DNA of 64,000 nucleotides from a virus. The stretch is taken from IMG/VR virus record IMGVR_UViG_3300045282_000084, positions 15,347 to 79,346 of that record; one strand, 5' to 3'. Both the position numbers and the translations under genes were made by a program. Shown here piece by piece: positions 32,344-61,768 of the stretch. Below the pieces are notes generated by a model. The model worked only from the letters and a program-made list of their open reading frames with translations, was not told the DNA's origin and did no database searches. The stretch's first letter is position 1; each line of letters begins with the position of its first letter.

Positions 32344-32437
32344 ACCCTAACACGACCCATAGAGGGCAACCGAAACTCCCCAGACTTACAAGAAATGGGG
32401 GAAAGTGACGCATCCCATCTCGGTGAACCTATAAACT
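32344..32437. promoter_or_regulatory. Divergent pair of CCCTCT-class promoters
   Basis: Minus strand: CCCTCT(32366-32361)-N11-TAGGGT; plus strand: CCATCT(32415)-N11-TAAACT. Confidence 0.65.
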
Positions 32438-32496
32438 GTCACGTGTGACCGGTACCACAACCCCGACCCAGCGAGCACCATGCCAGGTATGTCGGA

Positions 32497-32982
32497 ATGA
32501 GTGATTCTGGGCACGCACAGTTGCATCGGGTACTTGTAACCGGTGACCGAGAGTGGAGTGACCCACACCCCATTTACGAGGCGCTCGATGAGCTGCGGCG
32601 CAAGTACGGGCCGCTGCTGATCATCCAGGGTGATGCCAGGGGAGTGGACACCCACGCAAAGCATTGGGCGATCAGCCGACGCGAAGCGTATGCGTCGTTC
32701 CCCGCCCAGTGGGATCGGCTCCACAAGGCTGCTGGGCCGATCCGCAACTCGCAGATGCTGACCGAGATGCGACCGTCGCTCTGTGTCGCGTTCCACCCGA
32801 ATCTGGACGAATCGAGGGGAACGGCAGACATGGTAAAGAAGGCTCGGAAGGTGTGCGAGGTTCTTGTCAATCCACACGTCAGGGAGGACGATGGAGACAG
32901 AGCCCCAGGAACAGGGTTACTTCATGAACGAGGAAGACGGCGCGACGAAGTACGAACTTCCCCGTCTGAAACAGCAACTTGA
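32497..32982 (+). CDS. SLOG-family (DUF2493/YspA-like) protein
   Basis: RVLVTGDREW..IIQGDARGVD..AAGPIRN..SRGTADM. Confidence 0.85.
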   Translation: MSDSGHAQLHRVLVTGDREWSDPHPIYEALDELRRKYGPLLIIQGDARGVDTHAKHWAISRREAYASFPAQWDRLHKAAGPIRNSQMLTEMRPSLCVAFHPNLDESRGTADMVKKARKVCEVLVNPHVREDDGDRAPGTGLLHERGRRRDEVRTSPSETAT

Positions 32983-33145
32983 CCAAGTTCGCGGGACGGT
33001 CGCCGATCTTTGTCAAGAATGGGATGGAACGAAAATCGAACCAGAAGTATGGCCGGTTGTTCTAGCTCTATTCGATGCAGTCAAGAAGGTCGAAGATGAA
33101 ATGACGCGGCTTGGAATCACGCTGCGCTCGGCAGGACTCGGCTGA
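32891..33145 (+). CDS. Hypothetical protein
   Basis: GGAGG SD. Confidence 0.55.
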   Translation: METEPQEQGYFMNEEDGATKYELPRLKQQLDQVRGTVADLCQEWDGTKIEPEVWPVVLALFDAVKKVEDEMTRLGITLRSAGLG

Positions 33146-33190
33146 CAGTTGTCTGACACCGCTATCTAAGCGTTGTAGTAAACTGCATGA

Positions 33191-33402
33191 ATCGCACAGT
33201 CAACGTGCGAACAGGGGGACAGGGAATCGGTTGGACTGGGTGAAAGCCCCTTTCGGAGTTCGACCGATGGGGGGGCGAGGTGTTGGTTGACTGGCCAAGC
33301 GCGGTTCGACCGCGCAGCACCTCGTCCCCCACCTCCATCGGCTGGGGTCGCGACGGGACCCTCCTCCTTCGAGTGGAGTAGCCCAACCCGTTGCGGCCCC
33401 GG
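33191..33402 (+). ncRNA. Candidate structured ncRNA with three long G-U-containing helices
   Basis: Own promoter CTATCT-N11-TAAACT (33162-33184); 12-, 15- and 17-bp stems; no convincing ORF. Confidence 0.6.
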
Positions 33403-33429
33403 CCGGTGACCCTGGGATCTTCTAGATCA

Positions 33430-33494
33430 CATCTATGTGGTAAACCTGCTAAATCCCATCTATGTGGTAAAATGGGGTCAACCATTTACCGCAT
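33430..33494 (+). promoter_or_regulatory. Extended -10 promoter with repeated operator-like ATGYGGTAAA boxes
   Basis: CATCTATGTGGTAAA twice (33430, 33457), inverted TTTACCGCAT at 33485; TGTG-G-TAAAAT. Confidence 0.6.
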
Positions 33495-33508
33495 GGAGGG
33501 GGTTCTGA

Positions 33509-34438
33509 ATGTCTACGTCCGTCGGGCCGGAGAGTGCGACCGAAAACGTCGGTATGTCCCACTACAACTGGCTGTCTGAGGAGATCGAGCGCGAGTTTCG
33601 CCGCCCCTTCACGGTCGAAGCGGTGCGGTTCAAGCCGCAGTCGGTCAGCAAGGACAAGACCCGAGCCCTAGCGACGTTCTACATCGACGCGCGCCTGGCT
33701 GCCGAACGCCTGAACGCCGCCGCTGGAGCCGCCAACTGGGCCGACGAGTATCGGGTGCTGTTCGAGTCATCACCCACCGCTCACTCCGACAACTTCTTCC
33801 CCGTCGAGTGCCGCTTGACCGTCTATCAGGTGACCAAGACCGACGTGGGTATCTACCAGAAGGCGACCGCCGACGACAAGGCGGTCAAGTCTGCCTACTC
33901 TGACGCCTTCAAGCGGGCGGCGGTCAAGTTCGGCATCGGTGCCTACCTGTACGCGATCCCCGGCATCTGGGCTCCGGTTGAGGTGGGGGAGAACGGCAAG
34001 GTCAAGGGCTTCACCAAGGCGGGCATCGCCCAGCTCAAGCGCGATTACCTGACCAAGCTCAAGGCGATCGAGGGCCGGTTCGGTACCGCCCTTGACCACG
34101 GCGATGTGGGCGATGACCCCGAGGTAGGAGATCAGACCGAGTACGCGCCGCCACGGGTGGCCACGATCCCCTACTCGCAGCAGAAGACCGTGTGGGCGAG
34201 AGCCAGAGACGTGGGCCTAGTCATGATCGACAAGCCGACCGACGTGGACAAGGACAAGCTGGAGACGATCGTGGAGATGGTCACCGGCCACCGCAAGGTG
34301 TCTGAGATCGCGGTCACGGACTTCAACCACGTGCTCAAGGTGCTCGACGCCTACAAGGAGCGGCCTGCTGACGCCGAGGCCAAGATCCTCGACTTCATCC
34401 GAACGAAAGAGAATACTGCGGCTGAAACCGCCTTGTAG
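33509..34438 (+). CDS. Rad52/Sak-family single-strand annealing recombinase
   Basis: YIDAR..ERLN..W..KSAYSDAFKRAAVKFGIGAYLY. Confidence 0.9.
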   Translation: MSTSVGPESATENVGMSHYNWLSEEIEREFRRPFTVEAVRFKPQSVSKDKTRALATFYIDARLAAERLNAAAGAANWADEYRVLFESSPTAHSDNFFPVECRLTVYQVTKTDVGIYQKATADDKAVKSAYSDAFKRAAVKFGIGAYLYAIPGIWAPVEVGENGKVKGFTKAGIAQLKRDYLTKLKAIEGRFGTALDHGDVGDDPEVGDQTEYAPPRVATIPYSQQKTVWARARDVGLVMIDKPTDVDKDKLETIVEMVTGHRKVSEIAVTDFNHVLKVLDAYKERPADAEAKILDFIRTKENTAAETAL

Positions 34439-34447
34439 GAGGGCTGC

Positions 34448-34765
34448 ATGAATGAGATGAATCGCGGGGAAATGATCCGCCAGCTTGACGACGCATCGAA
34501 GGAGGTGCTGCACAGGCTGACCAACGGGCCGTTGGAGGACACAGAGCGTCACGCCTTGGCCCGGAGCCTGATCAGGCTTCTTCCTGTTGTGGCTGACAGC
34601 CTGCAAACTCAAGAGGATCGTCAGGCCGCAGAGAAGCTGATGGAGCACCTTGAGCGATGGGAGATCGAAGCCAGAGCATCCAAGCAGCTCGCCGAGTCAG
34701 AGCAAAGGGATGCCACCGATGCCACCCCGCACCACGTCCAGGTCGATGAGGAGAAGTGGTTCTGA
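34448..34765 (+). CDS. Hypothetical protein
   Basis: AGGAGG SD. Confidence 0.6.
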   Translation: MNEMNRGEMIRQLDDASKEVLHRLTNGPLEDTERHALARSLIRLLPVVADSLQTQEDRQAAEKLMEHLERWEIEARASKQLAESEQRDATDATPHHVQVDEEKWF

Positions 34766-35127
34766 GACGAGCTGACTTCCTCAAGCGCATCGCCGCTGGT
34801 GCGGCCATCATCCTCCTGCCGGTGCCGAAGTGGCTACCACGGCTGATCGAGGAGGAACCGTTCCTCCGGGTCACCTGCTTCGCCCGCATCACCTGCGCTG
34901 ACGGTTCGGTGCTGGTGTGCCCAGTGGTCGAGCACATCGCTATGGAGCAGGGAGCCGAGCGCCACTTCGAGCTGGTAGCCACAGATGCGATCAACCCGGT
35001 CAAGACCGAGTTCTTCCTCGATGACCGCCAGGTAGGTAGGACCCACGACATTGGCTTGTCCCCTGGTGGGATCATCCTCGCACCGGGGGACACCCTAAGT
35101 CTGACCTGGGTGCTCCACGTCGAGTGA
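34756..35127 (+). CDS. Hypothetical protein with hydrophobic N-terminus
   Basis: Overlaps the previous stop. Confidence 0.55.
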   Translation: MVLRRADFLKRIAAGAAIILLPVPKWLPRLIEEEPFLRVTCFARITCADGSVLVCPVVEHIAMEQGAERHFELVATDAINPVKTEFFLDDRQVGRTHDIGLSPGGIILAPGDTLSLTWVLHVE

Positions 35128-35164
35128 ACCCCTCCCTTACCCAGCCGGGGTATGCGATCCGTAC

Positions 35165-35500
35165 TACCAGTCACGCCGCTTCGCGGACTCCTTGAAGGCA
35201 AAGTTCGGCTTATGCGTGGGAGAGTCAACCATAGAGCTGAACATGTCCGAGCCTGCCGCTGACTTCTGCCTATCGCCGTGTTAGGGCGTCCGCCTGCCCG
35301 CACTCACATGCGGTGCTCGGCCCCGGTGCCACCGGGAGAGGACGACTCTGGATGCTGTCACAGGTGAACATGCTGCATTGTCGATGGTAGTCGCCGAACT
35401 GATAGAATGCAATCGGACGACTCTCCGGCCTCGCCAGTTGGAGAACATGCTGCGATAGAGGCTCGGCCAGGCTGCACTTCCTGACCGGGCCTCTGTCTCT
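35165..35500 (+). ncRNA. Candidate large structured ncRNA with internally repeated modules
   Basis: Many stems with G-U pairs on the plus strand; GGACGACTCT x2, GAACATG x3; no plus-strand ORF in the track. Confidence 0.5.
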
Positions 35501-35513
35501 TAGGTTGACCCGG

Positions 35514-35542
35514 TTGACCTTCTCGGTGTGAGCCTGTAGTAT
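35514..35542 (+). promoter_or_regulatory. Canonical SigA-type promoter for the replication genes
   Basis: TTGACC-17 nt-TAGTAT. Confidence 0.7.
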
Positions 35543-35626
35543 TGGGCGGTACACCGTTTCGCGGCCCCCTGGCTCCTCAACCCCCTCCTGTCGGGGGGCC
35601 GCGAACTTGATCCGAGGGGGGTCAGA

Positions 35627-36076
35627 GTGTCAGAGCAAGTCGTTCCCCAGGAGACCATGCTGCAACGAGTGCCGTGGTCGGGGGAGATCATCGACGTGAG
35701 CGACCCTGCCGTCGTGGCCACCGCCCTGTACGAGTTGCGGGAGATGAGGCGGCGCATGGCTGAGTTTGAGGAAGCCGCGCAGCAGATGCTGCTCGACCAG
35801 ATGGACACGCGCGGCCAGTGGACGATGCGGTTCGGGGACAGAGAGGTCGAGGGTTCGACTCCGGGCGACGACTACTACTACGACGTGGAGCAGTTCCGCA
35901 AGGTGTTGGAGGCGGGGCTGCCCGAGGACAGGTTCAACGAGATCGTGACCGTAAAAGTCACGGAGTCCGTGAATCGAACCAAGGCAAAGGCGCTCCTCAA
36001 GGTGCCTCAGTACGAGCAAATCGTCAAAGACGCTCGCGTCGATACCGCCAAGCGGCGACGGGTGATCGTCCGATGA
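35627..36076 (+). CDS. Hypothetical protein, possibly Gp157/Gam-like
   Basis: Coiled-coil N-half, basic C-terminus; position in the recombination/replication module. Confidence 0.5.
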   Translation: MSEQVVPQETMLQRVPWSGEIIDVSDPAVVATALYELREMRRRMAEFEEAAQQMLLDQMDTRGQWTMRFGDREVEGSTPGDDYYYDVEQFRKVLEAGLPEDRFNEIVTVKVTESVNRTKAKALLKVPQYEQIVKDARVDTAKRRRVIVR

Positions 36077-36405
36077 TCGCCCCCGAATCTGTCGCCGAGG
36101 TATGGGTGGCCTACTCGCGCCACCACCCACGATCGGTGCCCAGCGACGAACGCATGGCGCTGATCGAGCGCAGGCTCAAAGACCACTCGGTCGAGGACTT
36201 GATCGATGCGATCGAGGGCAACCATCTGGACTCTCATTGCAACGGACAAAACGTGCGACACAGGGAGTACCACGACCTGGGACTGATCCTGCGCAACGCC
36301 GATCACATCGAACGGTACGGCGCGATAGCCCGCAACGGGGTGCCCCAGACCACCGCGCGCAAGGCGTGGGAGACGGCGCAGCAGTTGAGGGCGGTGGGCG
36401 AATGA
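36073..36405 (+). CDS. Replication protein resembling the C-terminal domain of phage replisome organisers
   Basis: RLKDHSVEDLIDAIEG..NGQN..YHDLGLILRNADHIERY. Confidence 0.5.
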   Translation: MIAPESVAEVWVAYSRHHPRSVPSDERMALIERRLKDHSVEDLIDAIEGNHLDSHCNGQNVRHREYHDLGLILRNADHIERYGAIARNGVPQTTARKAWETAQQLRAVGE

Positions 36406-38428: not shown

Positions 38429-38655
38429 CCAAGCTGGAGGCGTTCTGCCTCGCTCAGTTGGAGAAGAAGGTGATGAGTACGCGGGCGCTGACTGTGGCTG
38501 CTCGCCGTACACTCGGGGCCAAAGTCTCAAACACGATGCACGCGATGCCCACGCCCGTCAACTACGCCGCCATCGAGGTTGCCCTGCGCTCCCTCGAACG
38601 CGATGGGCTTGTGCTGCGCCGTGGGCACCCACCCGAATGGAAGGCCCGTGGGTAA
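38425..38655 (+). CDS. Small winged-helix-like protein
   Basis: ALRSLERDGLV..W; coupled start. Confidence 0.45.
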   Translation: MTKLEAFCLAQLEKKVMSTRALTVAARRTLGAKVSNTMHAMPTPVNYAAIEVALRSLERDGLVLRRGHPPEWKARG

Positions 38656-39229
38656 GGCTGGTCGTCCCAGGCTGTACGACCACGACGAGATCAAGCGGTT
38701 GTATGCAGAGGGTAAGACGCCCTGGCAGATCCACAAGATCATCGGCTGTGACGGAAAGACCCCCTACATCGTGCTTGGCCTACAGCGTCCCCGAACGCCT
38801 GAGTCGCTCGCCCGTACCAAGGCCCAGAAACGGCTGCGAACGCAACGCCGACAGGAGCGCCGTCGCCTGGCCCGCGAGGCCCGCATCACCGCCGCCCTGG
38901 AAGCGATCAGGGAGTTCAGCGCGTGGAATGGTGGCCCACCTCACTTTCGGGACTGGGGCACGAATGATCTGCCCTCGGCGAACACCATCCACACGCTGTT
39001 TGGCGGTGCAGGGGCAGCGGTACGAGCGGCTGGGTTCGAGTTCGAGCCGGACAAATCAGGGGGCCGTCACCCGACCGTTGAACGCAAGACACAGGCGGAT
39101 GTGACACCGTGCCAGCGGGCGGGGTGTCATCGCAAGGGATTGTATCTGTACAGCGATTTCCTGCTCAACTTGAGCGAAAAACTCTGCCTTGAGCACTATC
39201 AGGAACGAATGAATGCCCTCTCACGGTGA
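38648..39229 (+). CDS. HTH protein with homing-endonuclease-associated repeat-like segment
   Basis: IKRLYAEGKTPWQI (HTH); PPHFRDW..LPSANTIHTLFG..AVRAAG. Confidence 0.55.
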   Translation: MGKAGRPRLYDHDEIKRLYAEGKTPWQIHKIIGCDGKTPYIVLGLQRPRTPESLARTKAQKRLRTQRRQERRRLAREARITAALEAIREFSAWNGGPPHFRDWGTNDLPSANTIHTLFGGAGAAVRAAGFEFEPDKSGGRHPTVERKTQADVTPCQRAGCHRKGLYLYSDFLLNLSEKLCLEHYQERMNALSR

Positions 39230-39275
39230 TGGTACACTTCGCGCACAGTCAGGTAAACCACCGAAAGGGGCAAGC

Positions 39276-39566
39276 ATGCACTCCTACCACGCGAGAACAG
39301 ACCCGAGCATTGATCCCATGTACTTCGACGGCTGCGCCGAGTGTCTCCACCACGCGCAGAGGCCAGAGGTGTACCTGGACACCGAGCGCTTGGCGGCCAT
39401 GTGGGACGAGATGGTGCGCGTTGAGCGAGATTACAGCGAGAGCTATCGCTCCGTCGCCGATGGCGTTGCGGGCCGAAACCTCTATCGGTTCGCGGTGTTC
39501 ATGGAGCGGATCGGGATCAACCCATGGCAACCGTTGGGGGAGATGGTAGTACGGCCACCGTTCTAG
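39276..39566 (+). CDS. Hypothetical protein under a CCCTCT promoter
   Basis: Promoter 39216-39238, GAAAGGGG SD; DGCAEC. Confidence 0.6.
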   Translation: MHSYHARTDPSIDPMYFDGCAECLHHAQRPEVYLDTERLAAMWDEMVRVERDYSESYRSVADGVAGRNLYRFAVFMERIGINPWQPLGEMVVRPPF

Positions 39567-40725: not shown

Positions 40726-41197
40726 TGGAAGCTGCGACTGGGATGGCTGCGGAGACAAAGCCACTCAGACGCTGTACGTCAGCTCTGGATTCGACGGTAA
40801 GAAAGTAGAGATCAGAGTGTGCGACAAACACCACCGGAGCTTGACCAAGCCATGGACGGCCTGACCAACAGCGAGAAAGCCATACTGAACGTGGTGCTCG
40901 AAGTGTCGCAGGAGTACGACATGGCCTTCGATGCAGCCGCCGAACGGATAGGGATTGACAAGGATTATGCCTTCCGACTATTCCTCAAAGCGCACGGGTT
41001 GCAAAGACCGTAAGATCGGCGAGATCAAGTGGGTAACTCTGAAAGGGCCGATCAAGATCGAAGTGAAGGGCCGAGTGCATCAGATGTTCGAGGGCGATGT
41101 CGTAGGATGGGATTCAGAAGGAGACATCTTGATAGGGTTTCGGACGGTCTAAGTGACCCCGTATAATGACATGCGAACGACAAACAAAGGGGAGACG

Positions 41198-41332
41198 ATG
41201 GCAACATGCAAGCGGTGCGGCACAATGGGCGCAACCGCTGAGTTTCGCAAGTCGCCCACGGCCGGGTACCTGTGCAAGGACCACGTGGCCTGTAAGCGCC
41301 GTGAGCGCAAGATCCGCGAGGCACGCAGATGA
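41198..41332 (+). CDS. 44-aa Cys-rich protein
   Basis: MATCKRCG..LCKDHVAC; promoter CGGTCT-N11-TATAAT and SD upstream. Confidence 0.55.
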   Translation: MATCKRCGTMGATAEFRKSPTAGYLCKDHVACKRRERKIREARR

Positions 41333-42383: not shown

Positions 42384-42408
42384 AGAGGGGACTTCGGTCC
42401 CCTCTTTG
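42384..42408 (+). terminator. Intrinsic terminator
   Basis: AGAGGGGAC-TTCG-GTCCCCTCT-TTG. Confidence 0.75.
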
Positions 42409-42479
42409 CGTTCCTATGCAGACCCTCTACCGTAGGTGATATTGTGTACGCACATGGTAGTCAACCGAAAGGGTGGAAG

Positions 42480-42956
42480 GTGTCTGAAACTGCTGACCTG
42501 GCGCTCGCGGCGTTGGGGCCTGTGTTCGCGCGCCGCGATGCGCTCATCGCGGAGCAGGAGCAGGTCGTGGCCCGCGCGCTTGAGATCGCGGTTGAACTGC
42601 GAGTGATGGAGATGCTCGCAGCCGCGGTCAAGGACGTACAGGATGTCGAGGCAACCAAGGAGGATCAGCCCGAGCCCGAGCCGAACGACGACAACGGCAA
42701 CGGGCGCAAGCCCAAGAGTCGCGGCCACAAGTCCAAGGGCGTGTCCGAGTACATGATCGCACGCGTGCTCCACTACTTGCGCGACCACGACACCGAGGAT
42801 GTCGGCAGCACGGAACTCATGGAGGCGTTGCACACGAGCCGTGAGACCGTCAACCGGTCACTGGAGATCCTGCGCGTCCGTCACATGGCGCGCAAGGTTG
42901 GACGTGCGGACGGAAAGGGCAGAGCGATGTTGTGGTCGGTGATGGATGCCGAGTAA
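42480..42956 (+). CDS. Coiled-coil plus C-terminal winged-HTH protein
   Basis: STELMEALHTSRETVNRSLEILR. Confidence 0.6.
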   Translation: MSETADLALAALGPVFARRDALIAEQEQVVARALEIAVELRVMEMLAAAVKDVQDVEATKEDQPEPEPNDDNGNGRKPKSRGHKSKGVSEYMIARVLHYLRDHDTEDVGSTELMEALHTSRETVNRSLEILRVRHMARKVGRADGKGRAMLWSVMDAE

Positions 42957-45608: not shown

Positions 45609-45888
45609 GCCCCTCTCAGACAACAGGTACACTTATAGGTGACAGGGTAAACCACCACGCGAGGGGCTTCATGATGACTTCCATCGTCGCTGTGCTGTTC
45701 TTCTGGTGGGGCTGGGTCGCCGGGTATCACTACAGAGGTTCTCGATGGTGAGAAGATGACCATTAGCGAGCTGCTCGACTACCTCGACGGACGCGGCCTG
45801 GTCGTCACCGACTCAGACTTGATCGCGGAGGAACTGGTCGATGTGGGGCTGACTCCCGACACCGAGATCACCGAAAGGAAGTGAGACG

Positions 45889-46161
45889 ATGACCACCATG
45901 ACCAAAGATCAGGCGACGATCCAGGCGGAGACGACCAATGCCTCGCGCGACTTACGCCTGAACGACGACCAGCTCCAGATGCTGGCCGAGTACATCAGGG
46001 GCAACGGGTACAACTGGACCCACTACGCACACCGGCTGAACCCGTGGCGGAAGTGGTGTCCCTGCTCACGGGGAGAGTGTGTGGCGGTGCGCAAGCTGGC
46101 CCGCAAGCTCCCAAAGGAGACCCACCCCATTCTTCGCAAGTACGCGGAGACGTTGCGGTAG
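45889..46161 (+). CDS. Hypothetical protein
   Basis: GAAAGGA SD. Confidence 0.55.
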   Translation: MTTMTKDQATIQAETTNASRDLRLNDDQLQMLAEYIRGNGYNWTHYAHRLNPWRKWCPCSRGECVAVRKLARKLPKETHPILRKYAETLR

Positions 46162-46162
46162 C

Positions 46163-46191
46163 TTGACCGGAGTGTCAGTCAGACTTATACT
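46163..46191 (+). promoter_or_regulatory. Canonical SigA-type promoter
   Basis: TTGACC-17 nt-TATACT; spacer contains GTCAGTCAG. Confidence 0.7.
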
Positions 46192-46211: not shown

Positions 46212-46376
46212 ATGTGCCAGATCAAGCATTGTCCCCTGACGGCGACGATGACGCTGCGATTCGGGGGACGGGATCGGAAGCTGTGCGAGGGCCATGGAGT
46301 GGCGCTGAGGCGGCTGACCGAGCCGTTCATACTGGTGGCCCCGGCAACGGAGTCATCGACGTGGATCAAGCCGTAG
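46212..46376 (+). CDS. Small Cys/His protein
   Basis: AAGGAGGT SD; C...C..CEGH. Confidence 0.55.
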   Translation: MCQIKHCPLTATMTLRFGGRDRKLCEGHGVALRRLTEPFILVAPATESSTWIKP

Positions 46377-46861
46377 CCTGGTACACCCAGGATCGACGGA
46401 CCATGCCTGAGATCGCGATGCGATTCGGCGTGTCGAAGCAGGCGGTCCACAAGGCTCTGTCCGACGCTGGGGTCGAAGCCAGGCCACGCGAGGAAGCTCG
46501 CGCGATGGTGCTCGAACGCCAGTATCCACAGTCGTTCCGAGAGCAGGCACTCAAGCGCTGCGAGCAGATCGGGATCACGGCTGCGGCTGCCGAACTGCAC
46601 GTCTCCCGTCAGACGCTCAAGTCGTGGGGCGCGAAGGGCCGACCGCGCCGTAGGCCGCTGATCAGTTGGGTGGACATCAAGAAGATGTACCTCGATGGCC
46701 AGAGCCCCTACGAGATCGCGCCCGTCGCGGGCATCCACCCGAACGTGATCGCAGCCAAGCTGCGTGCGGGCGGCGTGAAGATGCGGTCGCGGTCTGAGGC
46801 CACCAAGCTGGCCGCTGCGAAGCGCCGGGTCGAGAGCGCCGAAGAAGTCCAAGCCTCGTAG
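46361..46861 (+). CDS. Multi-HTH DNA-binding protein (three HTH units)
   Basis: TMPEIAMRFGVSKQAV; ITAAAAELHVSRQTLKSW; SPYEIAPVAGIHPNVI. Confidence 0.7.
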   Translation: MDQAVAWYTQDRRTMPEIAMRFGVSKQAVHKALSDAGVEARPREEARAMVLERQYPQSFREQALKRCEQIGITAAAAELHVSRQTLKSWGAKGRPRRRPLISWVDIKKMYLDGQSPYEIAPVAGIHPNVIAAKLRAGGVKMRSRSEATKLAAAKRRVESAEEVQAS

Positions 46862-47094: not shown

Positions 47095-47159
47095 TTGCCC
47101 TCTAGGGGGTGCGATACCATCACCCTATAGGGTCAGTCAACGACCACAGGGAGGTTGGT

Positions 47160-47771
47160 GTGGACGAGGATCTTAGACGCGCGCTTGACGAAGCCTTCGA
47201 CAGCAGCGGTATTGGGGTCATTCCCGCGCTGATGATCATGGAGGCGGGCAGCGAGTTCATGTCGTGCGAGGAGTTCGGCGAACTGATCGAGGGCCACCAG
47301 GGCGATCTGGCGGAGAGGTTCGACGCCCCCGATGATGACTGGAGTCAGTTCATGGCCATCCAGTGCGTCGATGGCTCCGTACACGTGTTCTACATCGATG
47401 TGCTCATGGACCCGCGGATCAAGGATTTCCTGGCCACCTGGATCGTGCCGCGCGTGATCAGGGAGACGAACGCTCGCACATTCGGGTTTGCGTTCAACGC
47501 CTGGGCGATTGACATGAAACAGCACTCGGAAAGGCCCAACACCATGCCAAGCGATCATCCCGATCGGTTCGAGGTGCTGGAGGTAATCGTGGCTGACTGG
47601 TCGGGGCACATGTACACGGCTTCTGCCAAGATCAACCGCACCAACACCGCCCCTCCGATCTTGAGCGATTGGGATGCGCGACCGTTCGATGGCATGAAAG
47701 GTCGCTTTGTCGATCCGATGCTGGCTGCGATGAAGGAGCAGGCCAAGGTGGCGAGGGCCGAGCAGAACTGA
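47160..47771 (+). CDS. Hypothetical protein under a CCCTCT promoter
   Basis: Promoter 47098-47120; PSDHPDRFE motif. Confidence 0.65.
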   Translation: MDEDLRRALDEAFDSSGIGVIPALMIMEAGSEFMSCEEFGELIEGHQGDLAERFDAPDDDWSQFMAIQCVDGSVHVFYIDVLMDPRIKDFLATWIVPRVIRETNARTFGFAFNAWAIDMKQHSERPNTMPSDHPDRFEVLEVIVADWSGHMYTASAKINRTNTAPPILSDWDARPFDGMKGRFVDPMLAAMKEQAKVARAEQN

Positions 47772-50546: not shown

Positions 50547-50634
50547 CTGGCCACACTACTTCGCATCGCGGTGCCCTCTAACCATTAGGGTACACTATGG
50601 GTAGTCAAGGTCAAACGACGAAAGGGGAAGCACA

Positions 50635-50871
50635 ATGCCAGACCCGCAGTTGGACACCGATCTCACCTCGATCAAGGAACGCATGTCGGACGTGGACACC
50701 AAGGCGCGGCAGCTCACACCACTGGAGATCGAGTGCCTCGACCTGATCTGCGAAATCATCGGCAACGGTCAGGTGGATTGCTGCCGCGCGAACGCGATCG
50801 CGGAGAAGAAGGGTGACGCCCTTGTGCGGCGTTATCGCAGCGGGGTTGATTACGAGGACTACGTGAACTAG
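50635..50871 (+). CDS. Hypothetical protein under a CCCTCT promoter
   Basis: Promoter 50574-50596, GAAAGGGG SD. Confidence 0.6.
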   Translation: MPDPQLDTDLTSIKERMSDVDTKARQLTPLEIECLDLICEIIGNGQVDCCRANAIAEKKGDALVRRYRSGVDYEDYVN

Positions 50872-53550: not shown

Positions 53551-53880
53551 GGATCGTCAGCGCCACCACCCGTCGTCAGTTCCGGCTGGAGCCGCACCAT
53601 AACGGCTGCCACGTGTACGAACTTGAGGACGGGCGGTGGCGCAAGACGATGGTGTGGCCAAGCGACGGAGAGGCTTACGCCCACGTCTACCACACGATCA
53701 AGCACGCAGAGATTCGGGCACTCAAGTTCGGTGAGAACGAAGCTGAACCAGAACCTGAAACAAAGCCCAAGCGTAAGAGACGATCACCGGTCAAACGGAA
53801 TCGTTAGTCTCATCTTGAGCCTACCGTACACTATGTGTACGCGCGGTCAATACCGACCGCGTAGGGCAGAGGAGGGTCAT

Positions 53881-54405
53881 ATGGCGAAGCGACTGTCGTT
53901 GATAGTCGCGCTAGCGGGGATCGCAATCCTCGCAGTTCCGAGCGTGGCCAACGCTCAGGGCGTAAGTGGCCAGTGCGGGATTCACTTCGGTGATCTCGAC
54001 AAGATCAACAGTAGCGGTGCGTTCTACCACGCCCGCATGGGTCCCCGCGATGGGTACTCGGGCGGCGACATGCACTGCTACGGCAAGTTCCTCGTGTCGC
54101 AGGGACGGCAACCGAACGGGACTCCGAACCCGGCGGTGTGGGAGCTGTTCAACTGGCAGACGTGGAACCTGCACACGATCCTGGCCCTGAACGGTACGGC
54201 TGCCTCGTGCACCGGCTTCGGCCTGGCATTCGCAGCCAACGCTCCGGCTGGGGCTGTTGCGGCCTGGCTGACGGCCTCGGCCGGTGTCGGGTGCGTGGCG
54301 GGCGTGGGGTACATCGAGCAGACGTATCTCACGGCACATGCGAGTGACCCCAACTACTGCGGGCGCTACGCCTGCAACGGACCGGGCCGTGTCCCGCTCA
54401 ACTAG
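53881..54405 (+). CDS. Secreted Cys-rich protein with Ala/Gly hydrophobic segment
   Basis: Signal peptide ending VANA; six Cys; GGAGG SD; promoter 53810-53832. Confidence 0.7.
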   Translation: MAKRLSLIVALAGIAILAVPSVANAQGVSGQCGIHFGDLDKINSSGAFYHARMGPRDGYSGGDMHCYGKFLVSQGRQPNGTPNPAVWELFNWQTWNLHTILALNGTAASCTGFGLAFAANAPAGAVAAWLTASAGVGCVAGVGYIEQTYLTAHASDPNYCGRYACNGPGRVPLN

Positions 54406-54613: not shown

Positions 54614-54892
54614 ATGCGAACGGTGTGGAAGTACCACCTACCGATCCAGGACGAGCCTACCGATCTCACCATCCCGAAAGGCGCAGAGGTTCTGTTCGTG
54701 GACGATCAGGGGCTTGGCTCGGTCGTGTCGCTGTGGATGCTGGTTGATCCAGAGCGCGGCGTGGTGCCTCGACGGTTCACTGTTCGCTGCACAGGGCAGC
54801 CCATCCACGACGATTCAGAGCAGTACGTCGGCTCGTGTCTGATGTACGGCGGCTCGCTCGTGTGGCACGTGTTTGAGACGCCGCCATCCTGA
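54614..54892 (+). CDS. Conserved small phage protein
   Basis: VWKY.LP..LW.LVDP..TG..YVGS..LVWHVFE. Confidence 0.7.
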   Translation: MRTVWKYHLPIQDEPTDLTIPKGAEVLFVDDQGLGSVVSLWMLVDPERGVVPRRFTVRCTGQPIHDDSEQYVGSCLMYGGSLVWHVFETPPS

Positions 54893-55170
54893 TTTTCAGG
54901 CCACATCTACTTTTCCCAACGAATCCGGCATATATGCCCGGAGGGGAAAATGGGATTATGTCAAAGTCGTCATAGGGCACCATGCTGTGTGAGCCGGAAT
55001 GGTTAGTTCCGAGATGGGCATAGCGCGCCGAGATTTGAGACTATGGGTAAGCGTGCGCGATGTTCCTACGTTGGACCGGATTTTGTATAGAGGTCTAGGA
55101 CCATCTCGGCGAACAGGTATCATGGTTCATGTCAGTTACTATCACCTACCACGAAAGGGGACTGACGAAT

Positions 55171-55623
55171 ATGGCAAGCAATGACGTGATCAAGAAGCGC
55201 CTGATCAACGCGGTGAAGGATGCGGATCAGGAGTTCACGGGGGCGCTCGACGCGCGGGTGGCGGAGATGCCCGACAACGAGGCCAAGGCCGCGCGCAAGT
55301 CGGCCATCGCCGATCACCAGAAGCCGTCGAAGGACGTGCCCAAGAAGGGGAGCCGGGTCACACTCGCGCCGATCTTCAACGGCACGAAGTTCGAGGGCCG
55401 CGAGGGCGTGGTCACGCACGTCGATCAGGTCGAGCTGGGTGGACGCGTGCAGACGCTCCCGCGCATCCGCTTCGACGGTGGGCCGGTCGTGAAGACGCGG
55501 TTCCACTTCGCGATGCGGCCGGGCTACCTGGTCGTCATCTCCACCCCGGCCGAGGTCGAGCCGGAGCCGGAGACCAAGCCCGAGGCGGACGCCGAGGCCC
55601 CCGCCGAGGTCGCAGCCGCGTAG
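55171..55623 (+). CDS. Hypothetical protein, probably highly expressed (own promoter and terminator)
   Basis: Promoter 55101-55123; strong GC3 bias; terminator 55646-55684. Confidence 0.7.
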   Translation: MASNDVIKKRLINAVKDADQEFTGALDARVAEMPDNEAKAARKSAIADHQKPSKDVPKKGSRVTLAPIFNGTKFEGREGVVTHVDQVELGGRVQTLPRIRFDGGPVVKTRFHFAMRPGYLVVISTPAEVEPEPETKPEADAEAPAEVAAA

Positions 55624-55745: not shown

Positions 55746-55851
55746 TCGTGTGCCGCAAGCCAATGCGAGCCTCACGGGTTGGAGTGGTCGCGTAGGTGTT
55801 GGTACTCACGCGACACGCCGACGACCGCAGGCTCGATTACACGTGGTCGAG
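55746..55851. repeat. Dispersed 106-bp element, copy B
   Basis: Gapless alignment with copies A and C. Confidence 0.8.
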
Positions 55852-55910
55852 CATCCTCTGAGCGATGGGGTACACTGTGCGCAGGTCAAGTCAACCACGA
55901 AAGGGGTCTC

Positions 55911-56759
55911 ATGCCTGAGCTTGGGGAGACGCGCACGCGCTACATGCACGACCCGCTCGGTGATCCGAACCGCAAGCTGCGCTTGCACGATCGCTTCATC
56001 AAGACCTACGGGGTCAACCCGCCCGTGTGGTTCACCTACAAGGTTGCTGAGGTCTTGCCCAGCGAGGTGCCCGAAGGGGCGCTTGAGCCCGAACTGCGGT
56101 GACTCTCTACCGACTCGAACGCTGGGGGCTGTGGGAATACTCCGCCGAATACGAGTTGGCGGTATGCCCCCTGATGCCAGACGCCTGTGTCTGGGCGCCA
56201 CAACACATGATTCTCGCTCGGCATCCTGGCAAGTGCTGCCTGTGTAAAGGCGAGCTGCAAGGATCGATGATCGAGTACAGCCCTGGAAAGGGCTACTTCA
56301 ACAAGCACCTGCGATGTGCGGCTGAACGTTCACCGTGGCTGTCGTATGGATTCACCGCCGACGAAGTGTTGGAGATGTGGCGAATCATTGGCCGCTTTCG
56401 CACGGTCGGCTCAAACGACGCGGGGCTGGTCCTCGCAAGGAGGTATCTCGATGCCTGAACCATCCGAAGGCTCCCATCGCATTCCGCGCCCGATGCGTGA
56501 GCCGTACATAGATCCGTATCTGGATGAAGGGATCGCTGGCCTGCGGGCGATGTACAACAGCATGAAGTGCGACTCCGGCATGCCCGAGGATGCACCCGAA
56601 CCCGCGATTGGAGAGGGGCACTTCACATGTCCTCACTGCCAGGGCACCATCATCATGGGCACGATGCGCATCCCCGCTAACGAGCACGTGGCCTTTGAGA
56701 TTTCGGGGCGGCTCGTGGATGCGAAGCTGGCGGCAGAGAGGGAGGTACACCCCAACTGA
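55911..56759 (+). other. Hypothetical ORFs 55911-56102, 56099-56458, 56451-56759
   Basis: Under promoter 55854-55876; coupled. Confidence 0.55.
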
Positions 56760-56824
56760 CTCCCTCTTGCGGCTGACGTAAACTACTGACGTAGGTCAGG
56801 TCAACCACCAGTAGGAGTTGGGCA

Positions 56825-57331
56825 ATGAGGCACGGAATACCGGCACGCTGGAGTGTCCCTCTAGCGGTTCTGGCTGTGATCGTGTGCGCGATCGGCGGGG
56901 TGATGCTGGCCTCGAAGGCTGCGCACGCGGGCGCAAAGGGAGTTCCGCTGGTCACGAGGACGATCAAGGGTAAGACGATCATCACGACCAGGCCGGTGCA
57001 TGTCCCGGCGCGCACGTACACCCGAAATGGGAGGACGGTGACGGTACCAGCGCACACGGAGCTGCGAACGACCAGCACCTTCGTCCCTGGCCAGACGGTC
57101 ACTGGGCCTGGACGCACGACGACGCGCACCGTGGACGGCACGATCGTCCGAACGATCACCACCCCTGGCAGGGTCACCACGGTCACCGAGACGGGAACTG
57201 GAACCACGGTCGTGAGCGGGACCACGATCACCTTGACGGTGCCCACGACCATCGTCCAGACGCAGACGGACACCGTGACGCAGACGGACACCGTGACTGA
57301 GACGGTTACGATTCCACCACCGGTCTCATGA
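56825..57331 (+). CDS. Secreted or membrane Thr/Val-rich protein
   Basis: N-terminal TM/signal; TxT repeats; 18-nt tandem repeat near the end; promoter 56762-56784. Confidence 0.7.
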   Translation: MRHGIPARWSVPLAVLAVIVCAIGGVMLASKAAHAGAKGVPLVTRTIKGKTIITTRPVHVPARTYTRNGRTVTVPAHTELRTTSTFVPGQTVTGPGRTTTRTVDGTIVRTITTPGRVTTVTETGTGTTVVSGTTITLTVPTTIVQTQTDTVTQTDTVTETVTIPPPVS

Positions 57332-57393
57332 ACCGCCCTCTCGCACATGCGGTAACCTATGGGTAGGTCAGTCAACCACCCAAAGGGGGCGTC

Positions 57394-60040
57394 GTGCCTG
57401 AGATCGAAACCCTGTGCGAAGCATGTGGCTACCCGTGTGACGGGCAGTTCTGCTTGCGCGAAAAGTGCGTGGCCGATCGATTCGGAATCAAGCCGCCGAA
57501 GCCGAAGCCGCGTCGAAAGCGCGTCAAGAAGCTACCCAAGCCCATCGCGCCTGCGAAGTTCAAGCGCAGGCAACGGGTTGACCATCAGCCGCCCATCGGT
57601 ACCCGAGAGGGGTTGAACGACCACCACAACGAGAGCTACCAGCGCATCACCATTCACCGCTACCTCGAACGCGACAAGATCGAGGCGCTGATCAAGCTTG
57701 GGGAGGAACTGGAGAAGTAGCAGCATGGTCATCATCAGGATCGAGACCGAACCAGCCGAGTTCCCACTCGGCCCGTTCTACAACCTGTGGATCGAGGGTG
57801 ACCTCGCTCACCACGGCGACTCAATCCATCCCATCCTCGACAAGATCGTGGACATGCGGAGGATGGGCCGCATCGTGGTGTTCGACTCATGTCCGACGTA
57901 GAACTCCAGCCGCTCCCGCTCACCAAAAGGTACATCTACGTCGCCTCATGGTGGGACGGGGACGAGTTCACCTGGCCGATCGGCTACTTTCGTCTTCCTC
58001 CCACGCGCAGGGATCAGTTACGCGCGCTGCGCGACTTTCTGCTCGAATCGGAATACGGCGACGGCGAGGGGCTATCTGCCCACTTTCGGGATTACCCTCC
58101 CAGAAGGGACGTGCTTGAAAATGTCAAGATCGAGCGACACATGCTCCGATAGGAGGGTCACGATGCGGTACGCTCGCATTCAGAGCACAGACGCTATCGT
58201 CATTTCGCGCTACCTGCCCACAAACTACTCCGTGCTGTTCTCCGATGAGCGAACGACGGTGATTGCAGGCGAGGATGTCTACGGGTGGGCGCTCGATGAC
58301 TTCGTGCTTCCACGTCTGAGCACGTGGAACCTCATCGGCGGTGAGATCGATCTGCTGGGAGAGTGCAAGCTGTGCGGGGAGGCGGTGTTCACCGACGATG
58401 ACCCCGGCGAGATGCACGACCCGAACAGCGACAAGCGCGGCACCTGTCACGGGCAGTGCGGCCTCGACGCGGGCTGGGTGGTGTCGTGAGCGCAGAAGAC
58501 GACCCCAACCGTCAGCTTGGACCGTTCGTGGAGGGGCTCATTATGGGGGCCATCCTGGCGGACTGGCCGCGACTCGACACGAACACCAGGGCGATCGGCT
58601 GGAAGATGGAGATGGTGGAACTAGACCGTCACGCGCTGGTGTTTACCAGCCCAACCAAAATCAAGTGGCGCATCGTGGCGCAGATCATCGAGGACGACTC
58701 GACGCCCTCTCAGGGGTCAGGTACAATCGACACATGAGTCAACCACCCACCGAAAGGGTCTAGACATGGATACCCAGGCGCGTGTTCTTGTGATAGCGCT
58801 CGTGCTCACCAGTTTCGTCGCGGGCCTTCTTCTCGGCCACTTTGGTTTGCCATCATGACTTACGACGACATGATGGACCTCAAGCGCAACGAGGAGTCAG
58901 AGGGTGAGGCAGGCCCACGCCCGCTCGCGTTCACGGCGGACGAGGTAGCCCAGCACATCCACGAGAACCCGGACGATCCCGACTGCGAGGTGCTGAACCT
59001 CGCGATGGAGCGCGACGTGGCCGCCCGTGAGCGATATTGGCAGCAGCGTGCGCTGGACGCAGAGGAGAGGCTACGCGAATACGAACGTGGCTATCGCCAT
59101 GCTTTCTGAGTCTGTGTTCCTAGGAGTTTTGGCGGTCATCGTTCTGATCCTCGTCGCCCTGGCCATTCGCCCGCTGCTCGAACTGCGAAGGCTCGACAAG
59201 CTCGACCGCGAGACGTGGGCCAAGATTCACGACCTGAACAGGAGGAAGCGGTGACTAGGCCGTTCGGGATTCCCATGCAGGATGTCCCACCAGGCTGGCA
59301 TGCAATACCCACTGAGTACGGCATGGCCGTATTCACCCGTCAGCAGTACGAGCGAGCCGAAATCCCCAACGGGACGCGCGTGCGCAAGATCAACACTAAG
59401 CCAGGCGACGTGTACGTGGATGGCTGGGAGGGAGTGGTGATCGGGAGTGCTGGTCATGAGTCTCTTGACCCAGAGGTCGGCTACTTCGTCATCTGGGACG
59501 GCAGTGAGATTCCCATTGGCACGATCGGCTCGAAGCTGGAGATGGTGTGATGAGCGACGCTCTTTACGAGGCGCTCGCAGAGTTGGAAACCGCCGCGACC
59601 GAGTTGGTGAAGACAGCCAAGCCAGTGTCAGGCACAGACGCATGGGTCGTGTCGAAGCAAGCAATGGATCGGCTTCGCGTGGCATTGATCGAGTTGACCC
59701 AGGAGTATGAGCGCGAGTAGTCGCCCTCTGAGCGGTGCGATACCATACTTGCATGAGTTCAGTCAACCGAAAGGGCACTATGCCACGTGAGACGGAAATC
59801 GGCTCGTCTGAGACGAGCCACAAGGTGGGTGATCGCGTCACGCTCGCCCTCCGACACGAGAGCTGGCCGTATGTGAAGGCATATACGGGCACGATCGTGT
59901 CGTTCGGAAGCGATGTGCGCGAGGCGCGCCCCGACGACGAGGGTGGGACGGTCGCCGTCGCACAAGTCAAGATCGACGGCGGTTACAACAACTTGGATTG
60001 GATCACGGTGCCCATCGATCACCTGCCTGATCCGGTATGA
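57394..60040 (+). other. Array of small hypothetical ORFs (57394-57720, 57725-57901, 57889-58152, 58163-58489, 58486-58737, 58855-59109, 59099-59254, 59251-59550, 59780-60040)
   Basis: Coupled starts and stops; three CCCTCT promoters (57336, 58705, 59724). Confidence 0.55.
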
Positions 60041-61071
60041 GGTTCAAGGAACACGTCGAGCGCGCATCGGGTTGGATCGACTCCTCGATCATGACCCAAA
60101 TCCAGCAGATGGGTGCCGATCCAGCCTTCGACAAGCGGCGGGTGACCGAAGCCATGAACTATGGCTGGCGGTACACCGAAGCCGAGGGAGTGCCGCCCGA
60201 GCGGTACTTGGGTGCGCTGCAAACGTCAGCCTGGTTCAACATCGACAGCGACATGCTCGATGGGGTGCTGCAAGGCGCTGACCCCACGATAGACGAACTG
60301 CCACCGCTGCCGTTTCCCCGTATTGCGCTCGACGCGCGCTGGGCGTTGCGAGGTACGCGGTCGCCACTGTTCGCGGTCTCGTTGGAGGAGTCACAGGATG
60401 CGTCACATCACTTGATGCACGCGCAGAAGGTTCTCTACCCCGGCGATCCGGTTCCAGATGCGACGTATACCCTCGCCTGCGCCACAATGATCATCTTCGA
60501 GATTCAGCAGGGAATGTTGTGGGACGTGATGACGACGATGACGTACATCGACCGGCACAAGAACTGGGTCAGGAACCCCACGTTTTTCGGCTTTCATGTC
60601 ACTTCTCAGCAACATCTGGCCGATCACGATGGCTGGCGCAAGTACAACATGTTCGGCTGGAGTGAGGATGAGAAGGACACGGTGGTCGAGTTCGACACCT
60701 TCTTCGGCCATCTGGTGTGGAAGACGGCGGTGTCAGCCGCGCACATCATCACCGCCACGAATATCCGCAACGTCCGAGTGCTACCCAAGCGCAAGCAGAT
60801 GCGCGACCTGAACCGCCGTCACCGCTACGCCCCCATCGAGGCCCGCATCTACCGCGTGGACATCAATCAGAATACGCTGGTCACGTCGGGGGCGAGCGAT
60901 CGCGAGTTCCACTGTCGGTGGATGGTGCGCGGGCACTACCGACGCACAGCCCACGGCGAGTACCGCCACCCGGTCGATGGCTCTCCCGCCTCGTGGGTGC
61001 GAGCGCATATCAAGGGTCCTGCCGGTGCGCCGTGGAAGGGTCGCCCCTATCACGTCAAGGAGGAAGTGTGA
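60037..61071 (+). CDS. Conserved phage protein with C-terminal VRGHYR..WVRAHIKGP motif
   Basis: Basic C-terminal motif typical of a family of uncharacterised phage proteins. Confidence 0.7.
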   Translation: MRFKEHVERASGWIDSSIMTQIQQMGADPAFDKRRVTEAMNYGWRYTEAEGVPPERYLGALQTSAWFNIDSDMLDGVLQGADPTIDELPPLPFPRIALDARWALRGTRSPLFAVSLEESQDASHHLMHAQKVLYPGDPVPDATYTLACATMIIFEIQQGMLWDVMTTMTYIDRHKNWVRNPTFFGFHVTSQQHLADHDGWRKYNMFGWSEDEKDTVVEFDTFFGHLVWKTAVSAAHIITATNIRNVRVLPKRKQMRDLNRRHRYAPIEARIYRVDINQNTLVTSGASDREFHCRWMVRGHYRRTAHGEYRHPVDGSPASWVRAHIKGPAGAPWKGRPYHVKEEV

Positions 61072-61260
61072 GCTACTGCAAGGGTTCAGGCTTGCTGGGC
61101 TTTCCGGTCGGCTTCAAGCTCAACGGCAGATTCGTGCGTATGCCTGGCTGGGTTATCTGTAGTGGTTGCGGTGGGCATTTAGCCGCTACCGGGAAGTTGG
61201 TCCGCAATCACCCGCCAGTGGCCGATAAGTCTTTTCGGCTTGACGGGAAGGAGACACCCG

Positions 61261-61521
61261 ATGGCTGACGAAGGCGACTACGTGATCCAGATCCTCGATC
61301 GTGGCTTGGCTGGGGCGTACATCACTGAGTTCACGGCCGAGGATGGGCTTGAAGTCACGAGCCTCGTGGAGCAGGCCAAGCGGTTTGCGACCAACCTGGA
61401 GGCGATGGAGTTCTGGCGTCAGGAGCTGCCCCAGGGTGTGCAGGGCGACAACCCAGCTCGGCCCAACCGCCCCCTCACCGCCTTCACGGTCAACATTCAC
61501 AGGGCGAGCCAAGCTACGTGA
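61261..61521 (+). CDS. Hypothetical protein
   Basis: AAGGAG SD; RPNRPLTAFTV. Confidence 0.6.
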   Translation: MADEGDYVIQILDRGLAGAYITEFTAEDGLEVTSLVEQAKRFATNLEAMEFWRQELPQGVQGDNPARPNRPLTAFTVNIHRASQAT

Positions 61522-61588
61522 GCCGGAGTGACTCCCTCTGGGACGGTGGCTCGTACCCTGGTCGCACCGAAACCCCGATGCGCGCTCG

Positions 61589-61694
61589 ACACGTGCCGTG
61601 AGCCAATATGAACCTCGCGTCAGGGAAGGTGTGGGTCGGTACCTACCCCTACCTAAACCTCCAACGACCGCAGGCTTGATCGTGCGACGGCAGG
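61589..61694. repeat. Dispersed 106-bp element, copy C
   Basis: Gapless alignment with copy B (60/106 by hand count). Confidence 0.7.
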
Positions 61695-61768
61695 CACAGC
61701 CTTCACATCGCCCTCTCGGTGGTCGCGTACACTACGCGCAGGTCAGTCAACCACCGAAAGGGTCTGAG

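Follow-up and report, generated by a model that had tools for sequence, protein, structure and literature searches.

Putative promoter-leader start cassettes built on a CCCTCT box in the non-structural arm of an uncultivated soil phage

In Cluster K mycobacteriophages, 13-bp start-associated sequences (SAS) of uniform orientation mark the ribosome sites of 11-19 right-arm genes, and roughly half of these sites carry an upstream extended SAS (ESAS) (PMC3203893). The ESAS of phage Adephagia has been re-read as a 46-47-bp unit that combines a SigA-like -35/-10 promoter with an imperfect inverted repeat ahead of the SAS (PMC11373665), and the function of both elements is still unproven (PMC12699233). 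Microbacterium phages contain repeats of unknown function, namely an SAS (GGGAAAGGACCCC) with a weak ESAS in Cluster EF, an 18-bp motif in EC and further repeats in EG and EI (PMC7302621), and Cluster A phages harbor stoperators, 13-bp asymmetric immunity-repressor sites that are present in many copies and oriented with transcription (PMC3203893). In the middle promoters of phage T4, the place of the -35 is taken by a MotA box, 12+/-1 bp from a sigma70 -10, and MotA reads this box on AsiA-remodelled sigma (PMC2988021, PMC6755090), and Thermus phage P23-45 relies on extended -10, -35-independent middle and late promoters, with its protein gp39 blocking region 4 (PMC3950348). Here we analyze a repeated unit of ~60 bases, composed of a CCCTCT box, a -10 hexamer, a leader and a ribosome site, in a 64,000-nt stretch of viral DNA (the window) that comprises bases 15347-79346 of the linear, 79,346-bp IMG/VR record IMGVR_UViG_3300045282_000084 (GC content ~61%, CheckV completeness estimate 78%).

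Next to nothing is known of the promoters and regulators that uncultivated high-GC soil phages use, and the start-associated repeats of actinobacteriophages have no proven function after 15 years. The sequence analyzed here, which originates from soil metagenomes, provides an unusually clean case, with two promoter classes occurring together, a rigid box/-10 module open to mutation and a leader module that can be separated from it. An earlier reading of the stretch (the original prediction) had proposed that a phage-specific promoter, CCCTCT-N11-TAnnnT followed by a GTCAACC leader, heads at least 17 accessory cassettes.

All 11 exact matches to CCCTCT-N11-TAnnnT listed in that prediction are present, 10 on the + strand and one on the - strand, against 0.15 expected from 100 dinucleotide shuffles (shuffle maximum 1), and the nnnTCT variants that it had placed at 32415, 33162, 41145, 53810, 55101 and 55854 keep the identical spacing. 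No match is found in the 15 kb of genome to the left of the window, and spacers of 9, 10, 12 or 13 nt between CCCTCT and TAnnnT return none. On its own, CCCTCT shows no enrichment (19 occurrences against 18 expected on the + strand, 17 against 26 on the - strand), which indicates that selection acts on its rigid pairing with the -10 hexamer. A Chi-like or restriction-type word was ruled out as a candidate, CCCTCT itself being neither over- nor under-represented. When the box is relaxed to TCT-N11-TAnnnT, 18 + and 4 - matches are obtained (22 against 7.1 expected on both strands), and 17 of the 18 + matches are intergenic or at the end of a gene, all 17 of them within 32-62 kb.

The resulting tally comprises 11 full + cassettes, one - box/-10 site heading a leftward operon and five weaker + sites (Table 1), all of them located in the non-structural arm at 32-62 kb and co-oriented with their genes (16 + and 1 -): every + copy precedes a + gene, and the sole - copy precedes the leftward operon. 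The unit stands ahead of 11 to 17 gene groups of the early arm, and ~1-2 of the six weak nnnTCT variants could be chance matches. Proteins encoded downstream of the cassettes are mutually unrelated ORFans, and the description of these genes as host-takeover functions in the original prediction was a guess. An intergenic-enrichment check recovered the same elements, the most intergenic-enriched hexamers being pieces of the cassette (TACACT, AGTCAA/GTAAAC, GAAAGG/AAAGGG and CCCTCT). Similarity through recent duplication was considered and ruled out, since the spacers are saturated with changes while the box, the -10, the +1 and the leader blocks are kept.

Alignment of 12 sites on the box outlines the anatomy of the unit. 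The CCCTCT box is invariant save for one T at its first position, and the hexamer keeps its T, A and T in 12/12 sites; a G occupies -14 in 10 of the 12 (GnTAnnnT), the base at -1 is a pyrimidine in 11, and the seventh base past the hexamer is an A in nine. As had been predicted, no -35 is conserved, positions -35 to -30 carrying less than 0.7 bit of information. The extended -10 of Corynebacterium glutamicum SigA promoters is GNTANANTNG, and the -35 is often unrecognisable there (PMC3917453). The combination of GnTAnnnT with a predicted purine start 7 nt downstream has the appearance of a primary-sigma promoter.

Eleven sites run on into (G)GTCA..GTCAAC..GAAAGGG and a start codon, which agrees with the leader originally predicted, and GTCAACC is itself enriched (27 occurrences against 9.5 expected). 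The order of leader elements is a tandem (G)GTCA-GTCAAC, often ACC, and then GAAAGGG(G), 4-8 nt ahead of ATG or GTG, in 5' leaders that measure 27-34 nt from the predicted +1. The distance from the -10 to GTCAACC is variable (10-15 nt), and so is that from GTCAACC to the ribosome site (0-7 nt); these floating distances define the box/-10 as one rigid module and the leader as another that is anchored to the start codon. Ribosome sites of the GAAAGG type are found at 8 of the 11 cassette genes versus ~8 of 94 other genes, and GGAG/GAGG sites are used by the majority of phage genes; two of the non-cassette GAAAGG genes, at 45889 and 51670, resemble leader-only sites. Conserved RNA structure inside the short leader was ruled out, its folding being no stronger than that of shuffles (z ~0).

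The canonical promoters reported in the original prediction at 5561, 35514, 46163 and 52669, as well as a 12-nt variant of the motif at 23620, are all as claimed, and the phage appears to have two promoter classes, the box type and TTGnnn-17-TAnnnT. To judge from the canonical sites, the host polymerase recognises a normal -35 at a distance of 17 bp. The promoter at 46163, with GTCAGTCAG in its spacer, is followed by a 54-aa open reading frame (ORF) with four cysteines (46212-46376; MCQIKHCP...CEGH), which has a perfect AAAGGAGGTGA ribosome site and a GC content at third codon positions (GC3) of 0.82, and which overlaps, in another frame, the start of a gene with multiple helix-turn-helix (HTH) repeats.

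We consider it probable, although some way from certain, that these repeats are promoter-leader start cassettes of the non-structural arm, with the box docking a trans-acting reader that we leave unspecified; a phage origin of that reader, as opposed to a host origin, is a substantial but minority possibility within this reading. We infer a compact promoter in which CCCTCT (core TCT) at -29 to -24 would be followed, after 11 bp, by a primary-sigma extended -10 (GnTAnnnT), without a -35. Host RNA polymerase with the housekeeping sigma factor would read the -10, and transcription would start at the A located 7 nt past the hexamer. The box appears too near the -10 for the normal contact by sigma region 4 and would most likely dock a trans-acting factor that replaces the -35 contact. 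The notion of a distinct promoter class with a -29/-24 box draws support from the spacing, the orientation, the intergenic position, GnTAnnnT, the -1/+1 bases and the coexistence with canonical promoters. If these promoters fire as proposed, they would constitute a middle-type class, apart from the four canonical ones, working like T4 MotA-box promoters, and the leader would equip the cassette mRNAs with a shared, strong ribosome site of a particular kind.

The original prediction knew of no analogue with this sequence and position, but a comparable architecture had already been described for actinobacteriophages (PMC3203893, PMC11373665, PMC7302621). As with the SAS, the motif overlaps and exceeds the ribosome site a few nt ahead of start codons, and its conservation goes beyond what pairing with 16S rRNA needs, here as GTCAAC-C(ACC)-GAAAGGG at 11 genes. 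Multiple copies precede unrelated genes in a single orientation and in the non-structural arm only; a subset of the Cluster K sites has a ~46-50 bp upstream extension containing a SigA-like promoter; and the start-associated motif stands without a promoter at some sites (here 45889 and 51670). The sequences, however, are unrelated (GGGATAGGAGCCC in Cluster K versus GTCAACC..GAAAGGG in this phage), and the -35 and -10 of the ESAS are 17-18 bp apart, whereas this phage has no -35, a box at -29/-24 and an 11-bp spacer. The 15-17 bp imperfect inverted repeat of the ESAS also lacks a supported counterpart here: the box plus spacer is complementary to the leader at 12 of 13 positions at 61711, and across sites only the box against the ribosome site is. 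Unlike Cluster K, this phage has no detectable kinship to cultured phages, its terminase being at most 30% identical to theirs. The Microbacterium repeats are likewise short, asymmetric and of one orientation, lie in small intergenic gaps, mostly of non-structural genes, and either coincide with the ribosome site or precede the start codon by 14-30 bp, with GAAAGG contained in the EF motif; they differ in sequence, no fixed box/-10 geometry has been described for them, and EC and EI phages encode a sigma factor, of which the present phage showed none.

With T4 middle promoters the cassettes share a host-type, often extended -10, a box that takes the place of the -35 at a fixed 11-13 bp, and canonical early promoters alongside. 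They differ in the box, which is CCCTCT with its centre near -26.5, against (a/t)(a/t)(a/t)TGCTTtA at -30 in T4, in the lack of a MotA/AsiA homologue in this record, and in the conserved leader, which T4 does not have. Reliance on a -10 or extended -10 could, as in P23-45, keep genes active when -35-dependent host transcription shuts off, a likeness that we offer as a lead only; no upstream box has been described for P23-45. Stoperators resemble the cassettes in orientation and intergenic position. What appears to be known, then, is the architecture of a repeated promoter plus start-associated leader, and what appears to be new is the sequence, the -29/-24 box in lieu of a -35 and the occurrence in a lineage without cultured relatives.

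Several results weigh against the promoter-leader reading. Six-frame searches of the 79-kb record, estimated 78% complete, returned no match at E<=1 to MotA (PF09158) or AsiA (PF09010), and none to sigma region 2 (PF04542) or WhiB. The HTH genes put forward as regulators in the original prediction match generic HTH profiles weakly, and the one at 38648 looks like a homing-endonuclease-associated protein. An intrinsic terminator is present upstream of just one of 16 cassettes (110 nt upstream checked), so that read-through could serve the genes, and one canonical promoter precedes the capsid gene, which means that the equation of canonical with early is not established. No relative carrying the motif was found in phage, IMG/VR, metagenome or genome collections, and the three soil runs in which the stretch is present include no RNA run. 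Lastly, the box could be a feature of host promoters.

Among the proteins of the record, the 166-aa multi-HTH protein at 46361-46861 is a reasonable candidate for the box reader as far as its sequence goes. The matches to PF08281 (Sigma70_r4_2) are sub-threshold and HTH-like (15.5 and 11.9 bits), AlphaFold models computed without alignments are poor (predicted local distance difference test, pLDDT, of 65 for 46361-46861 and 63 for 42480-42956), and PDB sequence searches with the HTH candidate proteins retrieved nothing significant. By analogy with T4, a phage activator that reads the box is plausible. The alternative sigma factor invoked in the original prediction is disfavoured by the gene content of the 79 kb, which shows no Sigma70_r2 match. 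PF00940 (single-subunit RNA polymerase) had no match in the record and none in the control genomes, making that search uninformative. Promoters of the sigma54, extracytoplasmic function (ECF) and single-subunit RNA polymerase types were rejected, their geometry being wrong for the motif and no corresponding gene having been found, and terminator-insulated "moron" units were rejected because a terminator is present in 1/16 only.

The box might instead belong intrinsically to one subclass of host promoters, where the host polymerase (sigma or core) or a host protein would contact it, and have been copied by the phage, an explanation that we deem unlikely without dismissing it. The -10 does resemble the ordinary extended -10 of actinobacterial SigA, no dedicated regulator was identified in the 79 kb, and many actinobacterial promoters function without a recognisable -35 (PMC3917453); yet an invariant 6-bp block at a fixed distance exceeds the reported needs of -35-less host promoters, the TTGAC-17 promoters of the phage show that the host polymerase reads a normal -35, and no published host consensus containing CCCTCT was found in the literature. 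Another possibility is that the box, or the GTCA-GTCAAC direct repeat at +2 to +15, is a repressor operator that, in the manner of Cluster A stoperators or the ESAS inverted repeats, silences the arm late in infection or in lysogeny. A protein bound at the box would clash with polymerase, proteins are believed to bind the ESAS repeats (PMC3203893), and GTCAGTCA recurs in the spacer of the 46163 promoter, which drives the multi-HTH gene, with four of its five copies in the window lying in promoter regions, a lead that would suit a regulator binding the GTCA repeat. Set against this, GTCAGTCA is not enriched overall (5 versus 3.7 expected), the box is short, asymmetric and devoid of a dyad, no integrase or recognisable repressor was seen, and GTCAACC floats with respect to the promoter but tracks the ribosome site, which argues for a role in RNA or translation; we find an operator doubtful.

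That the box acts in RNA is improbable in our judgment. Under this proposal, CCCUCU in read-through transcripts would mask the GAAAGGG/AGGGG ribosome site, and translation would depend either on local initiation downstream of the box or on coupling to a ribosome terminating just upstream. CCCUCU is anti-Shine-Dalgarno-like and pairs with the ribosome-site window at ~7 of 11 sites, folding of the segment between box and start codon is somewhat stronger than in shuffles (mean z -1.7, 10/11 negative), four boxes start 3-5 nt past an upstream stop codon, and the general absence of terminators leads one to expect read-through RNA. But partner swapping between sites costs nothing (-14.6 kcal/mol for own partners versus -13.7 for swapped ones, and -5.15 versus -5.3 for spacer and leader), which means that site-specific covariation is absent; box position 5, an invariant C, stands opposite an A of GAAAGGG; the weak variants keep the poorly pairing TCT and vary the well-pairing CCC; and an RNA arm would have no reason to lie exactly 11 nt from TAnnnT. 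An RNA role of the box may be a secondary effect. The original prediction also suggested that the repeats could be microhomology hubs for Sak-mediated cassette shuffling; as their main function, with Rad52/Sak exchanging cassettes between related phages, this is highly improbable. It rests on a contig of one soil run, other than the probable source run, that joins 59769 (just past GTCAACC) to 60037 (the ATG of the next gene) and skips one cassette gene, in a run that also has dense-substitution patches adjoining identical stretches; however, this is a single contig of depth 2.5, with only 23 letters matching on one side, and such joints often arise from repeats. Strict geometry, orientation and the link to start codons would be left unexplained, and recombination would be at most a by-product of shared promoters. 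Soil-run variation is compatible with cassette-wise mosaicism and far too thin for recombination hubs.

Returning to promoter-leader cassettes, the discovery of a box reader would reveal a new way to redirect a Gram-positive-type RNA polymerase and provide a compact orthogonal promoter/leader part; should the box prove to be a host feature, the result would be an ordinary one. A more elaborate version may be drawn from the region ahead of Rad52/Sak, where the 318 nt from the box promoter at 33162 to the Rad52/Sak start (33191-33508) begin exactly at the predicted +1 and fold at -176.6 kcal/mol (z -7.0 versus shuffles). The predicted fold includes a GNRA-capped hairpin (GGGU-GAAA-GCCC) followed by an unpaired CUUUCGG, and its segment GCCCCUUUCGG (33246-33256) shows complementarity to the leader of the cassettes, CCGAAAGGGG, a match noticed post hoc. 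Duplex energy between this RNA and ribosome-site regions averages -16.6 kcal/mol for 13 cassette genes versus -10.5 for 98 others, and the modelled pairing suggests that the RNA could be a trans-acting regulator or sponge for cassette leaders. No Rfam family was matched in 32-64 kb. In its full form, the proposal would be a MotA-like switch of box for -35, with a reader unrelated to MotA/AsiA (possibly the 46361-46861 protein), coupled to a private GTCAACC..GAAAGGG class of ribosome sites that may be tuned by the 33191-33508 RNA through the complementarity of its unpaired CUUUCGG and adjacent GCCC to the leader. We regard this combination as speculative and rather unlikely; if true, it would amount to a two-layer regulon, transcriptional and translational, in a lineage without cultured relatives. 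GTCAACC is present at 33477, right before the Rad52/Sak ribosome site, and just upstream of both, at 33420-33475, are two copies of the direct repeat ATCTATGTGGTAAA, spaced 31 nt apart.

Searches for relatives were conducted at several levels. No match emerged when 56-62 kb were compared by megablast and blastn with 50,697 phage records, and the leader 17-mer, the 15-mer and the composite CCCTCT-N11-TAnnnT-N8-18-GTCAACC returned from IMG/VR either nothing or, among the matches listed, chance matches, which fell in unrelated, mostly low-GC phages. Single-protein scans with Rad52 and with the terminase yielded no relatives; in the terminase alignment, relatives are at most 44% identical and come from short contigs that lack the motif. 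A 19-kb NCBI contig encodes the best relative, P0001 (69% identical). A 6,002-nt contig of the probable source run, X1, matches the 61710-61755 cassette over 46 nt with 3 changes, implying that further cassettes exist, be it in the 22% of the genome that the record lacks or in a relative that occurs alongside. Soil run X2 holds a near-identical phage with mosaic patches, and its contigs between patches are identical. One patch places 22 substitutions within 125 bp (54685-54809) of the gene at 54614-54892, dense changes occur at 60181-60228 and 61606-61649, and there are deletions of 18 nt at 57259 and further ones at 57310 and 57316.

Table 1 Positions, within the window, of box sites, canonical promoters and genes
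Feature	Position	Strand	Details
Canonical promoter TTGCGA-17-TACTAT	5561	+	
Capsid gene	5738-7324		left arm
PG_binding+SLT gene	23678-24316		left arm, lysis
CHAP gene	24313-25125		left arm
ParB gene	26270-26947		left arm
Small terminase	27877-28404		
Large terminase	28385-29875		
Coiled-coil protein	29872-30552	-	leftward
AAA ATPase	30668-32230	-	leftward
CCCTCT-N11-TAGGGT	32344-32366	-	predicted transcription start near 32337
Weak site CCATCT-N11-TAAACT	32415-32499	+	upstream of ORF 32497-32982; back-to-back with the 32344-32366 (-) site
Weak site CTATCT-N11-TAAACT	33162-33511	+	predicted transcription start A at 33191; then 318-nt structured leader, Rad52/Sak
Canonical promoter TTGACC-17-TAGTAT	35514-35542	+	
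Full cassette, TACACT	39216-39278	+	predicted +1 39245; leader GGTAAACCACCGAAAGGGG; ATG 39276 (96-aa ORFan)
Weak site CGGTCT-N11-TATAAT	41145-41200	+	CA-rich leader, AAAGGGG, ATG 41198
Full cassette, TATTGT	42423-42482	+	GTG 42480; 158-aa protein, weak winged-HTH match
Full cassette	45611-45673	+	3 nt past upstream stop; ATG 45671, 26-aa hydrophobic peptide ORF
Canonical promoter TTGACC-17-TATACT	46163-46191	+	
166-aa protein, two to three HTH repeats	46361-46861	+	weak HTH_23/HTH_28/Sigma70_r4_2 matches
Full cassette, TACCAT	47098-47162	+	leader GGGTCAGTCAACGACCACAGGGAGG; GTG 47160 (203-aa ORFan)
Full cassette, TACACT	50574-50637	+	leader AGTCAAGGTCAAACGACGAAAGGGG; ATG 50635 (78 aa)
Canonical promoter TTGACG-17-TACCGT	52669	+	
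Weak site TCATCT-N11-TACACT	53810-53883	+	A at +1; GGTCAATACC hairpin in leader; ATG 53881 (174 aa)
Weak site CCATCT-N11-TATCAT	55101-55173	+	SAS-like leader CCACGAAAGGGG; ATG 55171 (150 aa)
Full cassette, box TCCTCT	55854-55913	+	leader AGGTCAAGTCAACCACGAAAGGGG; ATG 55911 (63 aa)
Full cassette	56762-56827	+	3 nt past upstream stop; ATG 56825 (168-aa ORFan)
Full cassette	57336-57396	+	5 nt past upstream stop; GTG 57394 (108-aa ORFan)
Full cassette	58705-58768	+	overlaps 3' end of ORF 58543-58737; ATG 58766
Full cassette	59724-59782	+	4 nt past upstream stop; ATG 59780 (86 aa)
Full cassette nearest consensus (CCCTCTCGGTGGTCGCGTACACTACGCGCAGGTCAGTCAACCACCGAAAGGG)	61711-61771	+	ATG 61769 (131-aa ORFan)

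Virion, tail and lysis genes occupy the left 30 kb of the window. To the right of the leftward pair formed by the coiled-coil protein and the AAA ATPase extends a 30-kb rightward array, chiefly of small ORFan genes, which also includes Rad52/Sak (33509-34438), a few weak HTH proteins and a VWA protein. A glycan-active gene is located at 62627-63250 on the - strand, and no tRNA genes were found in the phage sequence. The terminase and capsid proteins are ~30% identical to cultured-phage proteins (tblastn), and the matched hosts are scattered over many phyla. A 16S rRNA 3' tail of the ...CCUCCUUUC type is found in Gram-positive bacteria, and the cassette ribosome site GAAAGGGG can pair with such a tail. 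The host may be actinobacterial or otherwise Gram-positive, as hinted by the ribosome site, the GnTAnnnT promoters and the PG_binding/SLT plus CHAP pair.

Certain individual sites present additional features. The 32344-32366 (-) site heads the AAA-ATPase operon (30668-32230 and 29872-30552) through a leader of ~110-130 nt. In the seemingly empty 1.3-kb gap that separates the divergent promoters, the ORFs at 32497-32982 (translation ...LLIIQGDARGVDTHAKHWA...) and ~32925-33145 look like real genes that were missed by the codon-usage caller. The sole convincing terminator hairpin ahead of any cassette (42384-42405 plus TTTG) precedes the 42423 site; it reads AGAGGGGAC-TTCG-GTCCCCTCT followed by TTTG, and its descending arm contains a CCCTCT 18 nt ahead of the promoter box. 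At 58766, an ATG begins an ORF for a hydrophobic peptide of 30 aa, and the next gene is found at 58855-59109. This ORF (58766-58858, MDTQARVLVIALVLTSFVAGLLLG..., 30 aa) and the one at 45671-45751 (MMTSIVAVLFFWWGWVAGY..., 26 aa) are both short, hydrophobic and cassette-led, and may encode small membrane peptides or simply be leader ORFs.

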